Below are positions 9,043 to 14,832 of a stretch of 44,253 bases of DNA, one piece after another. Numbering within the stretch: the first letter of the stretch is position 1; every line of letters begins with the position of its first letter. This DNA is from Promethearchaeota archaeon (GTDB taxonomy: Archaea > Asgardarchaeota > Lokiarchaeia > Sigyniarchaeales > SOKP01). A program made the position numbers and the translations under genes. Under the pieces are notes generated by a model. The model had not been told where the DNA came from and searched no databases. It saw nothing but the letters and a program-made list of their open reading frames with translations. The stretch spans positions 1-44,253 of the forward strand of contig JBHLNZ010000026.1 of NCBI GenBank assembly GCA_048941015.1. The letters run 5' to 3'.

Positions 9043-10476
9043 ATTCGAGAGCCAATTACTCTAATTTGTACTAATTGTAAGCATATATTTGAATTTAGAA
9101 CAATAGAATATAAATGTCCTGATTGTAATGGTCTATTATGGTTTAATAGAAGTCTTGATAAATATAAAGAATCATTTTTAAAACTAAAATCATTTGATAA
9201 TTTTTGGGATTTTAAATTTACTTTACCAGTGATTAAAAGGGATTTTATAGTAAGTTTAGGTGAAGGTGGGACTCCTTGTAAAATATCCGAAAAAATTGGA
9301 CAAACTCTTGGATTAAAAGATTTATGTTTTAAAAATGAAACTCAAAATCCCTTTACAAATTCTTTTAAAGATAGAGCTGCGGCTCTTCTAATATCTCATG
9401 CTAGAAGTTGGGATTATGAAAAAGTTATATGTGCATCAAATGGGAACCAGGGGGCTTCAATTGCTGCATACGCATCTTTAGAAGGAATGAAATGTATAAA
9501 TATTATCCCTAATGAAATTGATATAGGCAAGAGAGCACAAATGATCATGTATAATTCAGATTTAATTATTCAGGGAAATACAATTGATGATATTTTAGAT
9601 TTTTCTTTAAAGCCAGAATATAAAAATTATTATCAATGCACTCCAGAATTCAATCCTCTTACGATTGAAGCTCAAAAAACGATAGCTTTTGAGATTTTTT
9701 TTCAAAAGGGTGTACCTGATTGGATAATTGTTCCGATGGGGAGTGGTGAGTTATTAATAAGTCTATGGAAAGGCTTTTCAGAACTTGAAATGGCTGGGAT
9801 AATTAATACAACCCCAAAGTTAGTGGGAGTGCAATCAGAAATATCTTCACCAATCATAGATGAATTCAATCAAAAAAAAGAGGTTTTAGTAAAAGAAAGA
9901 GAGATTTTAAAATCGTTAGCCTTAGGGATTTTAGTTAAAAAGCCTCTTTATAAAGAATTGGCAGTTAAATTTATAAGAATGAGTAAAGGAACAGCATTAT
10001 CAGTACCCGAAAATCTGATATTGAGCTCAACTGATGATTTGATTACTAATGAAGGGATTATCGCTGAGCCTTCTTCTGCTTTAACCTTATCTGCAATATA
10101 CCTTTTAAATCAAAGTGGAGCTCTAGAAAAAGATGATACAATTATTTGTTTGATCACAGGAAGTGGATTGAAGGCTCCGTATGTTCTTGAAGCTATTTCA
10201 TCAAGAACAAAAACCGCGGGAACTGGAGCAATCTTAAGCACTAAACTTAAAATATTATCTCGAATCTCTCTATCAAATAATAAAGGTATATATGGCAGTA
10301 AAATAAGAGAGATAATTGGATCTATAAGTTTTGCTGCAATATATCAGCATTTAAAGGAATTAGAACAGAGAGATTTAATCTATCGGAAAAAAGAAGGTAA
10401 AAATGTCCTTTATTTTATAACAAACAAAGGTAAGAAGGTTTTAGAAGCATTAGATACTCTCATTACACTATTATAA
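9043..10476 (+). CDS. thrC: Threonine synthase-like PLP enzyme with N-terminal Zn ribbon and C-terminal winged-HTH; start extended to ATT 9043 (ORF track gives GTG 9229)
   Basis: LGEGGTP, SFKDR (PLP lysine), ASNGNQG, VPMGSG, AEPSSA, ITGSGLK. In-frame upstream CTNC...CPDC. C-terminal AIYQHLKELE...YFITNKG. Confidence 0.8.
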   Translation: MREPITLICTNCKHIFEFRTIEYKCPDCNGLLWFNRSLDKYKESFLKLKSFDNFWDFKFTLPVIKRDFIVSLGEGGTPCKISEKIGQTLGLKDLCFKNETQNPFTNSFKDRAAALLISHARSWDYEKVICASNGNQGASIAAYASLEGMKCINIIPNEIDIGKRAQMIMYNSDLIIQGNTIDDILDFSLKPEYKNYYQCTPEFNPLTIEAQKTIAFEIFFQKGVPDWIIVPMGSGELLISLWKGFSELEMAGIINTTPKLVGVQSEISSPIIDEFNQKKEVLVKEREILKSLALGILVKKPLYKELAVKFIRMSKGTALSVPENLILSSTDDLITNEGIIAEPSSALTLSAIYLLNQSGALEKDDTIICLITGSGLKAPYVLEAISSRTKTAGTGAILSTKLKILSRISLSNNKGIYGSKIREIIGSISFAAIYQHLKELEQRDLIYRKKEGKNVLYFITNKGKKVLEALDTLITLL

Positions 10477-11315: not shown

Positions 11316-12104
11316 ATGGAATTTAACTTGATTATGATTTTTGTGTTAATCTGTTATCTTCTTATTCTATCTACTGGACTATTTTTATTTTATCGAATGC
11401 TGAAAACGCGATTGTATAATTTATTCGGTTTAGCTATGTTTTTTATCTTATTTACATTACAATTTTTTATACAACAAATATCTTATTTGTTCTATGCAAT
11501 TATTTCAGAAATAGCATTAATCTTTTTGATCTATTTTGTAAAGTGCACATTTTACAAAGAGAAAAGAATCGCTTTTCCCATAATTTTGATTTCTCTCTTG
11601 ATTTTAAAATTGATTGATTTAATTTTAAGACTTATATTTCAATTTACTGTTCCTGAATCCGATATGATCTTAATCTCAGAAATTCCATTTTATTATGCAC
11701 TTGCAATAACTGTTTCACTTCAGATAATAATTTCGATATCATGGTTATCCTATGCTTCTTTAAATGTGTATAACCGTATAAAAGTGCAAAATATTGAACC
11801 ATGGGTAAAAAAAAGATATATCATTATCGGTATTTCTTCGATATTTTTTGGTTTAAATGGATTTATACTTCCTTTTATACCAATAGGTGCTGGATTTGAA
11901 AATCCGTTTTTTACTACTCTAGTTGCAATTACAATTTTCATTTTTACATTTGGTAATTTAATTGCATGGATAATGCCTAAAAAATTGAGAGAATATTTTA
12001 ATCGTAATTATGTACCTATCACGGAAGATTTTCTTTCTGAAAGCGAGTTAATGGAAAAAATTAAATCACAATTAGCAGGAGGAGGCATCAATGGAAATAA
12101 TTAA
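11316..12104 (+). CDS. Stand-alone 7TM membrane protein (paralog A)
   Basis: Seven hydrophobic segments; WLSY..PWVKKRY, AWIMPKKL, LSESELMEKIKSQL motifs shared with the paralog at 12405..13157. Confidence 0.75.
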   Translation: MEFNLIMIFVLICYLLILSTGLFLFYRMLKTRLYNLFGLAMFFILFTLQFFIQQISYLFYAIISEIALIFLIYFVKCTFYKEKRIAFPIILISLLILKLIDLILRLIFQFTVPESDMILISEIPFYYALAITVSLQIIISISWLSYASLNVYNRIKVQNIEPWVKKRYIIIGISSIFFGLNGFILPFIPIGAGFENPFFTTLVAITIFIFTFGNLIAWIMPKKLREYFNRNYVPITEDFLSESELMEKIKSQLAGGGINGNN

Positions 12105-12366
12105 CATTTTAGGAAATGGTTTGGCAAATAAAATAAATATTAGCCCCCCTGCAGCAAGAGGACTAATTAAATTGTCGATTAAAGATGAAGTAGGTCCATT
12201 TAAACCCCTTGAGTTAATAAATTATGATGATTTAAAATCCACAATTCAAAATTCTCTTAAAGCAAGATTAAAAAATTTACAAATTTTCAATGCTGAAAAG
12301 ATTATAAGTGATCTTATAGACATATTGAATAAAAATCAATCGTTAATTACTATGGCAGGTGTATAG
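12091..12366 (+). CDS. Small soluble helical hypothetical protein (91 aa)
   Basis: Strong SD GGAGGAGG; start overlaps the end of the upstream 7TM gene by 14 nt. Confidence 0.8.
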   Translation: MEIINILGNGLANKINISPPAARGLIKLSIKDEVGPFKPLELINYDDLKSTIQNSLKARLKNLQIFNAEKIISDLIDILNKNQSLITMAGV

Positions 12367-12404
12367 TTATCCTCAACTTTATATTTTACATAACATTCGT
12401 TATA

Positions 12405-13157
12405 TTGTTCATTATTTTCATTGGTACAATGTCAGTTGTAGGATTTTTCTTTTTACTGAGAGGAATTCAGAAAAAGATGAAGAATCTAATTGTTATAGCG
12501 ATAGGATTCATTGCTTTACCTACTGGCTTTATTGGGACTTTTTTATTTAATTTAGAATATCTTTTTCAAGAAATTTTTGTATTTATTGGTTTTACTTTAA
12601 CGGTTATATTTACAAATATGACTTTTCATAGAAATAGAAGATTATATCCTAATCTAATTTTAGTGTTTGCTATTATATTAGGATTAATCCAATTATTGTT
12701 TCACTCTATCGAAACATTTACTACATTAAATTTTTATTATGAAAGAGTTGCTTTAGATGTTCCTTATACATTATTAATTTTTAACTGGTTATCTTGGTCT
12801 TCCTATTCGGCATATAAATCATTGAAAAAGCAAGATATCGCACCATGGATAAAAATTAGGTATAAAAGAGTTGGGATTTTTTCTTTTATTTTAAGTTTTC
12901 ATAATATTCCTGAATTTTTTCAGCCTGTTGGTACTGTTTGGGGTGATTATACTAATATTATAAGTCTAATAGTATTTGGTATGACCGCAATATTAGCAGC
13001 TATTTTTTCATTAGGTTTTGCATTTGCATGGATCATGCCAAATTGGCTTAAAAAGCGATATAATAAAGGATATCATCCGCCTAAAGATATTGAACTTTCT
13101 GAAAAGGATTTGATTAATATAATTAAAAAACAACTTTCAAATAAAAACAAAGAATAA
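12405..13157 (+). CDS. Stand-alone 7TM membrane protein (paralog B); start possibly ATC 12369
   Basis: Seven hydrophobic segments; WLSW..PWIKIRY, AWIMPNWL, LSEKDLINIIKKQL. Confidence 0.75.
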   Translation: MFIIFIGTMSVVGFFFLLRGIQKKMKNLIVIAIGFIALPTGFIGTFLFNLEYLFQEIFVFIGFTLTVIFTNMTFHRNRRLYPNLILVFAIILGLIQLLFHSIETFTTLNFYYERVALDVPYTLLIFNWLSWSSYSAYKSLKKQDIAPWIKIRYKRVGIFSFILSFHNIPEFFQPVGTVWGDYTNIISLIVFGMTAILAAIFSLGFAFAWIMPNWLKKRYNKGYHPPKDIELSEKDLINIIKKQLSNKNKE

Positions 13158-13174
13158 AAAATTGTTAGAATCAA

Positions 13175-13228
13175 ATTTGCACGATAAGATATAAATTCAA
13201 TTATTTTTATTATTTTAATCGTGTAAAT
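13175..13228. repeat. Intergenic inverted repeat ATTTGCACGAT-N32-ATCGTGTAAAT
   Basis: 11-bp arms with 10/11 complementarity (the mismatch is G:T) between the 7TM operon and the kinase gene. Confidence 0.55.
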
Positions 13229-13287
13229 GTTTAACTCTTCACTTTATTGCATTTGAAAGTTATTTATTATAATTGTTGAGGTAGAAA

Positions 13288-14832
13288 ATGGGATTTGAAA
13301 ATGATCAAGTAAAGGGAAAAAATGATTTCTTTAGCATAGAAGAAAGTATCTATGAAACTTTATTTAAGAATTTCCCCGATTTAATTTTAATTTTAGACTT
13401 AAGAGGAACTATTATTAACATTTCAGAGACGATTATTGATTTATATGGAGTGCAAAAGAAAGAAGATTGTATTGGAAAGAATCTTCTTGAACTAGTAGTT
13501 CCAGAAGAACAAGATTCTTTAAAACAGACAATACAGAGAGTTTTAAGTAAAGGTTCTGTTAGAATGGTTGAACACAAACTTAAAAAGAAGGATGGTACTA
13601 CATTTATAGGCGAATTGAGTCTTAGTATATTGAAAGATAAGAAGGAAGAGAATAAGTATCTTATTTGTATTTTAAGAGATATTACAAATCAAAAGGAGAT
13701 AGAAGATAAACTAAGAGAAAGCCAGGCTATGTTTCAATTAGTAATGGATAATATCCCCCAATTTATTTCTTGGAAAGATAAAAACTCTGTATATATAGGT
13801 TGCAATAAAAATTTTGCAAGAGTTGCTGGCGTTGATGAACCATATGATATAATTGGCAAAACAGATTATGATTTACCTTGGAAAATTTCTGAGGCAGAGT
13901 CTTTTTTTGAAATTGATCAATTAGTAATGGATACTGATAAACCAGAATATCATATTATAGAACCTCAACTCCAAGCAGATGGTAAAAAAGCATGGCTCGA
14001 TACAAATAAAATTCCATTACATGACTCTAAGGCAAGAGTGGTAGGTTTATTATGTACATATGAAGATATAACAGATCGGGTGAATTCAGAGAAAGCATTA
14101 ACGGATTCAGAAAGAAAATATCGTGATGCATATAATCGAGCAGAATTTTATAAAGATATCTTTGCTCATGACATTAGTAATATTTTACAAAATATTCTTT
14201 CATCTGTTGAATTAAGCCACTTTCATCTGCAAAAGGCGGAAAAAAACAAAGAATTAAAGCAAATATTTGAAATAATTAAAGAACAAATAATCAGAGGCGC
14301 AAACTTAGTTTCAAATGTTCGGAAATTATCAATTCTAGATGAAACATCTCCAAATCTAAATAATATTGAAGTTTTTGAATTTTTAAATAAATCCAAAAAA
14401 TATATTAACGTTGAATTTCCTGAAAGAAAAATTAATATTCAATTTAGTTCTCCTTTTGAATCATATTTTGTTAAAGCAAATAATTTATTATTGGATGTAT
14501 TTAACAATCTCTTATATAATTCAGTTAAACATAATAATAATGAAGTAGCTAATGTTTTAATTAGGGCTTCAGAAACTCAAAAGAATTTGAAAAATTATTT
14601 GAAATTAGAATTTATTGATAATGGGTTAGGAATCCCTGATGAACAAAAAGATGTTATTTTTCAGCTTGAAGAGCGGTCAGTTAACAATTTTTCAAGGATT
14701 GGGTTAGGTCTTTCTTTAGTAAAAAAAATAATGAGCACTTTTGAAGGGCAGGTTTTTGTCGAGGATAAAGTAAAAGGAAATTTTTCTAAAGGAAGTAATT
14801 TTATCCTTTTAATTCCTAAGGCATTGAATTAA
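13288..14832 (+). CDS. Soluble PAS-PAS sensor histidine kinase
   Basis: Two PAS/PAC domains (RDIT, EDIT); H-box FAHDISN, N-box [10 protein letters not shown]1 DNGLGIP, G2 GLGLSLVK; no TM segment. Confidence 0.92.

Follow-up and report, generated by a model that had tools for sequence, protein, structure and literature searches.

The window analysed here, a 44,253-nucleotide (nt) stretch of Promethearchaeota archaeon DNA (contig JBHLNZ010000026.1) from a 3.59-Mb Asgard archaeal genome of about 27% GC, carries a four-gene locus encoding two seven-transmembrane (7TM) proteins, A and B, a 91-aa small protein between them and a soluble PAS-PAS histidine kinase behind them. The two 7TM proteins were found to belong to an unnamed, Asgard-only family, the conserved unit of which is one 7TM protein plus one small protein, and comparison of gene arrangements across the family makes it highly probable that the two proteins of this unit associate physically. 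Further, with about even confidence, we interpret A and B as two diverged, Asgard-restricted 7TM receptors that share the small protein as an adaptor, which would in turn feed the PAS-PAS kinase. The four genes are co-oriented on the forward strand and follow a 216-nt AT-rich spacer, with A (262 aa) at 11316..12104, the small gene at 12091..12366, B (about 262–264 aa) from a probable start at 12363 or 12369 to 13157, and the kinase (514 aa) at 13288..14832. Close homologues carry the submitter labels Heimdall-, Hod-, Hermod- or Promethearchaeota.

A and B were aligned end to end with 31% identity (E 4e-30), and no other copy of either was found in the source genome. A reading made earlier from the sequence alone (the sequence-only reading) had proposed that two 7TM paralogues flank the 91-aa gene, and the open reading frames (ORFs), the identity, the hydropathy profiles and an AlphaFold2 model of A all bear this out. 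In detail, A displayed seven hydropathy peaks, with every Lys/Arg-rich loop and the tail on one side, so that its N-terminus is predicted outside and its C-terminus inside; neither fewer than seven transmembrane helices (TMs) nor the opposite orientation was found in the predicted topology. The model of A (predicted local distance difference test score, pLDDT, 84.6; predicted template-modelling score, pTM, 0.77) consists of seven long helices, a short helix 8 (residues 222–228) and a tail helix (242–253). As had been claimed, TM7 contains no retinal-binding lysine, since direct reading revealed no Lys in this helix of either A (residues 197–219) or B.

Conservation was then evaluated across 115 family members. 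It scored 0.50 in intracellular loop (ICL) 2, 0.47 in ICL3 and 0.54 at the TM7 end plus helix 8, compared with 0.25–0.37 in the TM cores and 0.19–0.27 in the outer loops. The conserved columns were W143, P162, W163, K165, R167, Y168, the W218-x-M-P221 motif and the tail positions E242/L245; neither His nor Asp was among them, and no conserved polar residue lies within the membrane. The earlier placement of the conserved motifs (TM5–TM6 loop, TM7 end, basic helix and tail) on the cytoplasmic face was thus confirmed in the larger family: the cytoplasmic face is conserved, and the outer half and the core vary freely. A conserved cytoplasmic face combined with a variable core fits a sensor that varies while its inner docking face stays constant, and argues against an enzyme or a transporter.

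The small protein was more conserved than the proteins that it accompanies, with a mean column identity of 60% vs. 18–53% for the receptors. Its homologues formed 114 clusters at 53–100% identity, nearly all exactly 91 aa long, and its AlphaFold2 model comprised four helices (pLDDT 93). The C-terminal NQSLITMxGV is among its most conserved parts, with Q83 and S84 invariant in 40 homologues, and always forms the extreme C-terminus, in single-chain fusions with the 7TM protein as well; model confidence drops at this end, to a mean pLDDT of 78 for residues 81–90 and to 37 for residue 91. By these features the tail resembles a docking peptide and may act as one. A fold search with the small protein returned the cap domains of HAD hydrolases as the best match (Z 7.0; Foldseek E at least 3), which is a generic four-helix arrangement, and the ESM Atlas feature matches (0.85, Myxococcota hypothetical proteins) fell under the trust level. 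A histidine phosphotransfer (HPt) domain was rejected, as the small protein of the window has no histidine; a conserved His column was also absent from the 40 homologues.

The small protein and the 7TM protein were searched for in 301 Asgard genomes. The small protein was present in 24 of them; 22 of these also gave a strong 7TM match, and no strong 7TM match came from a genome lacking the small protein. The distribution of the small protein was patchy: within the family it occurred in 19 of 68 genomes, and within the genus in 11 of 27. A word-based search retrieved only 17 clusters for A, and a full profile search 345 representatives at E ≤ 1e-3. At about 35 loci examined, the 7TM and small genes adjoin on one strand in nearly all, in the order 7TM-then-small (often with the same 14-nt overlap as in the window), small-then-7TM, or both. 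Further, in 29 of 166 family representatives, originating from Lokiarchaeia, 'Promethearchaeota' and Sigynarchaeota, the two proteins are fused into single chains of 302–400 aa, in which the small domain is always C-terminal, after TM7 and helix 8; one genome (G270) possesses two intact fused reading frames. Fusion, adjacency and co-occurrence together make a physical partnership of the 7TM and small proteins very likely, and fusion at the 7TM C-terminus places the small domain on the cytoplasmic side. Consistently, these same results upheld the earlier suggestion that the 91-aa protein is a dedicated cytoplasmic partner.

Fused and split forms also appear related in detail. Where the fusion is found in close relatives, the first helix of the small domain starts approximately 27–29 residues past the W-x-M-P motif, the position that the LSExxL..IKxQL tail helix occupies in split 7TM proteins. 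Tail and helix 1 resemble each other weakly in sequence, though more than shuffles do (mean −0.14 bits vs. −1.29 ± 0.22), and the tail of the split 7TM proteins may be a copy of this helix that has been kept.

In the tree, A falls in a clade that pairs elsewhere as 7TM-then-small with overlapping genes, and B in a clade that pairs elsewhere as small-then-7TM, so the window reads as two units sharing one adaptor gene. The coupling predicted by the sequence-only reading between A and the small gene was found as described: the two overlap by 14 nt, and a Shine-Dalgarno-like AGGAGGAGG (12077..12085, forward strand, by direct reading), located within the 3′ end of A, lies 5 nt upstream of the small-gene ATG. 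The gene order A–small–B is restricted, as shown below, and what recurs is the 7TM–small pair, in either order.

Two further arrangements were observed among the loci. At L044 (G168:C77:1-4064), one strand carries a small gene, a 7TM gene and a second small gene within 2 kb, an arrangement suggestive of tandem arrays of the unit, which could explain both gene orders. At L107/L108 (7100–7626 and 10425–11033), a fused gene of Sigynarchaeota is found near ParE/antitoxin and PemK/MazE pairs, an association that did not recur at other loci.

The gene following B encodes a histidine kinase with a HATPase_c domain at 54.7 bits (cutoff 26.4), a HisKA match at 20.9 bits, which is below its cutoff of 26.9, a visible H-box (FAHDISN) and two PAS domains well above cutoff. 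No hydrophobic or TM segment was detected in the kinase, and no response-regulator gene on the source contig, in agreement with the earlier description of a membrane-less PAS-PAS kinase lacking an adjacent response regulator. It is separated from B by a 130-nt AT-rich spacer (13158..13287, forward strand, read directly), which contains T5 (13204–13208), T4 (13213–13216), a TATA-like TTATTTATTATAA (13260–13272) and GAGGT (13278–13282); in relatives the corresponding spacer measures 44–138 nt.

The association of the 7TM–small module with this kinase was examined at the orthologous locus, between a gene for the S-component of an energy-coupling factor (ECF) transporter and a glycoside hydrolase family 20 (GH20) gene. 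Three gene orders were found there: A–small–B–kinase in G000 and G141; small–B–kinase in G246, G083, G174 and, from another genus, G186; and kinase–7TM–small in G310, G301 and G308. In addition, G297 (L041/L066, C119) keeps an intact small gene alone directly upstream of the kinase orthologue, and no member of the 7TM family was found anywhere in this 92%-complete genome. The PAS-PAS cassette of the kinase (13288–14127) is 47–56% identical across genera to those at L056 and L109–L113, and is joined to kinase halves of varying length and domain architecture (ORFs of 515–771 aa, with extra PAS domains). In G150, from another genus, the best match to the cassette (E 9e-89, with 51% identity over 257 aa; next match 2e-23) belongs to a kinase whose gene immediately follows a module of a different 7TM clade; the kinase halves of the two proteins are only about 23% identical. 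In two genomes a distant fused member is likewise followed, 97 nt downstream, by another PAS kinase. Moreover, histidine kinases made up 5 of the 91 genes within three positions of 18 other module loci, an over-representation relative to genomic density (11 HATPase_c matches in the 3.59 Mb of the source genome). Within the genus, all 17 genomes with a kinase orthologue carry the small protein, and all 14 genomes tested without the orthologue lack it.

The earlier suggestion that the module may feed the kinase thus finds moderate support in adjacency under three gene orders and in the G150 cassette, and many modules are found without a kinase. From these gene neighborhoods, the chance that the module feeds this particular PAS-PAS kinase is put at even or slightly below, and a membrane input of this type is a candidate route for the mostly cytoplasmic Asgard kinases.

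Several results weigh against a signal path from the receptors to the kinase. No kinase was found near L006, L007, L008, L042–L049, L051–L055, L057 or L058, and kinase orthologues had no intact adjacent module in their 1.5-kb flanks in G307, G306, G104, G113, G210, G279, G270 and G168. Decayed remnants stand beside intact kinases in two genomes, as a 7TM fragment with seven stops (G264:C4:67363-67731) and as a 36-aa piece of the small protein (G305:C74:50063-50170); intact modules remain elsewhere in both. All kinase-adjacent 7TM proteins of the genus fall in one clade, and much of the adjacency is thus inherited; the co-occurrence of kinase and small protein within the genus was likewise counted regardless of phylogeny. 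The T-runs and the TATA-like box in the B–kinase spacer make separate transcription of the kinase possible, and the fold match of A lies within the range reached by unrelated helical bundles. Finally, in a well-supported clade of modules (L051, L053 and L054, from G264, G104 and G279 of two genera), the gene in front is not a kinase but a Ras-family GTPase gene (Pfam Ras, E 1e-34 to 1e-44), at L051:7493-8011, L053:8622-9140 and L054:8465-8917, which lies 125–166 nt upstream of small-then-7TM on the same strand.

Based on these points, the module could signal with the kinase not being its output, the adjacency being inherited and the partners being Ras-family GTPases or unlinked factors. The modules without a kinase, which are the majority of the paralogous ones, the Ras-like clade, the kinase orthologues lacking an intact adjoining module and the decay in G264 and G305 all speak for this explanation, as does the finding that the upstream PALP-HxlR and ECF S-component genes are also collinear in relatives. 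However, inherited collinearity fits poorly with an adjacency that survives reshuffling of the three genes, with an orthologous PAS-PAS cassette that in G150 adjoins a module of another clade, with a distant fused member beside another PAS kinase, with the excess of histidine kinases among module neighbors, and with the small gene retained alone beside the kinase in G297. This explanation is rated unlikely, though it is the alternative that fares best.

L051 has a second Ras-like gene two genes further downstream, another was found near a fused member, and methyl-accepting chemotaxis protein (MCP) and CheR-CheD genes near two further module loci. A broader formulation, in which fast-diverging GPCR-shaped (G protein-coupled receptor-shaped) 7TM sensors and their highly conserved, detachable adaptor constitute a receptor–transducer system of Asgard archaea from Loki-related lineages, the adaptor plugging into PAS-PAS kinases at some loci and into Ras-family GTPases at others, is possible and on balance doubtful.

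The relation of A, B and the small protein to known families was then evaluated. Sequence and profile searches against Pfam, NCBIfam, PADLOC, PHROGs and PDB returned no match above threshold for any of A, B, the small protein, the fused proteins and the 115 members; Tetraspanin (6 of 115 members, sub-threshold) and PbeC (E 5.8e-4 over 46 residues) matches were taken as chance, and no clear match to a known transporter or enzyme family was found. An exhaustive structural comparison of A gave Z-scores of 10–12, values below about 13 being common for unrelated helical bundles, with root-mean-square deviations of 3.9–5.5 Å over 187–220 residues; the matches were mostly GPCR-type bundles, with several microbial rhodopsins and ACER3. 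Among the top 50 VIA-align matches, the GPCR-type ones include classes A, B, C and T, adhesion receptors, LYCHOS and a designed GPCR-like fold. Foldseek matches of A had E values of 0.2–1 and TM-scores of about 0.5. In the ESM Atlas structure search, the nearest structures were 7TM input modules found in GAF-HisKA_3 kinases and AraC regulators of bacteria (TM-score 0.64), followed by PAQR (0.55) and GGDEF proteins (0.54).

Individual 7TM families were compared in the same way. For GPCRs, no profile match reached the cutoff for A, B or the 115 members, the single hit being to Serpentine_r_xa (E 0.0015) in one member. The predicted layout is GPCR-like, with seven TMs, the N-terminus out, the C-terminus in and a helix 8; the class A motifs are absent, there being no D/ERY at the TM3 end (FVKCTFYK) and no NPxxY in TM7 (FGNLIAWIMP). 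The sequence-only reading had left GPCR homology unestablished, and so it stays; the Z-score lies in the look-alike range for helical bundles. HisKA_7TM (PF16927) matched none of the 115 members, profile–profile alignment (hhalign) of the family alignment with 15 Asgard HisKA_7TM domains gave a probability of 0.25% (E 0.24), and the domain was found in none of 25 genomes of the source family, though it occurs in other Asgard families. Bac_rhodopsin matched neither A, B nor the 115 members. 7TMR-DISM_7TM (PF07695) matched 2 of 115 members at E 0.019 or weaker, below cutoff. Similarly, there was no Pfam match to PAQR/hemolysin III (PF03006), the conserved His/Asp residues were absent, and the N-terminus is predicted to be outside.

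We lean toward reading the 7TM–small unit as a sensor. Alternatively, the 7TM family could be an anchor, a scaffold, a lipid-handling protein or a transporter, to which the four-helix domain adds a structural or regulatory part; the family showed neither a ligand site nor an output enzyme nor any known signalling domain, the fold matches lie in the generic-bundle range and include ACER3 and PAQR-type proteins, and the module is dispensable in the genus, as its patchy presence there shows. Yet conserved polar, metal-binding or catalytic residues are absent from the membrane core, conservation peaks on the cytoplasmic loops, the module neighbors are enriched for histidine kinases, Ras-like GTPases, MCP and CheR-CheD, and the closest predicted structures are those of input modules in bacterial signalling proteins; a role other than sensing is rated distinctly improbable.

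The idea of a heterodimeric A–B receptor, raised by the sequence-only reading and taken here in its obligate form, with signalling through the 91-aa protein as a dedicated transducer, draws on the tight coupling of A, small and B in the window, on the recurrence of this triplet in G065, G141 and G222 and on TM cores that diverged around a common cytoplasmic face. It was not supported and is very unlikely, because the triplet was seen in just four genomes of one genus (G000 and the above three), close relatives (G246, G083, G174 and G186) carry small–B–kinase without A, other loci have an A-type or a B-type protein by itself with a small protein, and units elsewhere consist of one 7TM and one small protein or of single-chain fusions.

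The start of B was examined separately. Initiation at TTG 12405 would cut TM1, and 14 in-frame hydrophobic codons upstream of it complete this helix. These codons are conserved in the window, L003 and L004, with mostly third-position or synonymous differences, and they reach back to an ATA (12363) that overlaps the stop of the small gene (ATAG), so that the TAG of the small gene overlaps the probable start region of B. No ATG, GTG or TTG precedes the conserved TM1 codons in the window, L003 or L004, and L006 likewise has no canonical start at this position. The orthologue L011 has ATG where the window has ATC 12369, most other small-then-7TM loci show an ATG within a few codons of the small-gene stop, and the match of the family hidden Markov model to B begins at 12384. 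TTG 12405 is therefore not the start of B, which probably lies at the non-canonical ATA 12363 or ATC 12369; given the conserved upstream TM1 codons and the L011 ATG, B would be about 262–264 aa long, and its coupling to the small gene would match that of A in tightness. Standard gene callers clip TM1 of B or give a protein of 239–250 aa.

A programmed frameshift joining the small protein to B, or A to the small protein, was considered and rejected in favor of coupled initiation. The small–B overlap has no slippery heptamer and the −1 frame has a TAA just upstream; a small–B fusion would place the N-terminal domain on the wrong membrane side, and an A–small fusion would contain helix 1 twice. 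Two other assignments were also discarded: a partnership with the neighboring ECF S-component, as the ECF adjacency is limited to the orthologous locus, and a defence or mobile element, as PADLOC and PHROG matches were zero. Upstream of the locus, the window encodes at 9229–10476 a pyridoxal phosphate (PLP)-dependent enzyme (PALP, threonine-synthase-like) with a C-terminal HxlR/PadR-type winged-helix domain, a fusion kept in relatives (L003).

A 7TM receptor with a cytoplasmic output is a known theme; what is new here is that the output domain is detachable and had gone unrecognised. The 7TM input modules of other signalling proteins (HisKA_7TM, PF16927; 7TMR-DISM_7TM, PF07695; 7TM-GGDEF; 7TM-AraC) are similar in having seven helices followed by a cytoplasmic output, in being nearest in the Atlas structure search (0.54–0.64) and in their association with kinase signalling. 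In contrast, no profile match to them above cutoff was found, the output of the A/B family is a four-helix domain without a known fold and often a separate protein, and the kinase at this locus is a third, soluble protein. The haloarchaeal SRII–HtrII–CheA system likewise combines an archaeal 7TM sensor with a separate co-transcribed transducer and a soluble histidine kinase (PMC13466386; in part general knowledge). However, A and B lack the retinal lysine of TM7, their putative transducer is soluble, small and four-helical and not a two-TM HAMP/MCP protein, and the kinase is of the PAS-HisKA type and not CheA. Eukaryotic GPCRs share the seven helices, the N-out/C-in orientation, helix 8, a conserved face formed by ICL2, ICL3 and the TM7 end, and a transducer more conserved than the receptors; they differ in that the A/B family has no sequence similarity to any GPCR family and its partner is a four-helix bundle instead of a GTPase.

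No description of the 7TM–adaptor family was found in full-text literature searches. Unnamed Asgard '7TM proteins' and GPCR-labelled structural clusters have been reported among Asgard–eukaryote families (bioRxiv 10.64898/2026.10.28.762692); that text gives no sequences or partners and mentions no four-helix partner or kinase, and the A/B family may or may not be among them. Asgard sensor kinases were described as mostly cytoplasmic and multi-PAS, with a call for work on the crosstalk between membrane receptors and cytoplasmic kinases (PMC10343646).

For the favored receptor–adaptor–kinase arrangement, the following mechanism is proposed. The conserved inner face of the 7TM protein would dock the four-helix domain, either fused to it or, as in the window, present as the separate 91-aa protein. 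A and B would be two sensors of different specificity, with one adaptor gene coupled to both. A change in a receptor, possibly upon binding of a ligand, would be passed through the inner face to the adaptor, which in this lineage may then act on the PAS-PAS cassette of the soluble kinase and so give the kinase a membrane input. The comparisons themselves support the paralogy of A and B, their predicted topology, the way conservation is distributed, the coupling of the genes, their fusion and co-occurrence in other genomes and the repeated presence of kinases nearby, and the docking geometry, ligand sensing and the flow of signal to the kinase are what we infer from them.

The receptor shape, the conserved inner face and the Ras-like links bear on the question whether the archaeal relatives of eukaryotes had receptor-to-soluble-transducer signalling, with GPCR homology unproven. 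The coexistence of fused and split forms provides a natural experiment on how the output domain of a receptor becomes a free transducer, and the locus itself is a concrete receptor/adaptor/kinase candidate that is testable in vitro. If the broader formulation, in which the adaptor serves kinases and GTPases, is true, it would represent a prokaryotic receptor/soluble-transducer/effector architecture not described before, and a route by which cytoplasmic Asgard kinases could sense the outside.

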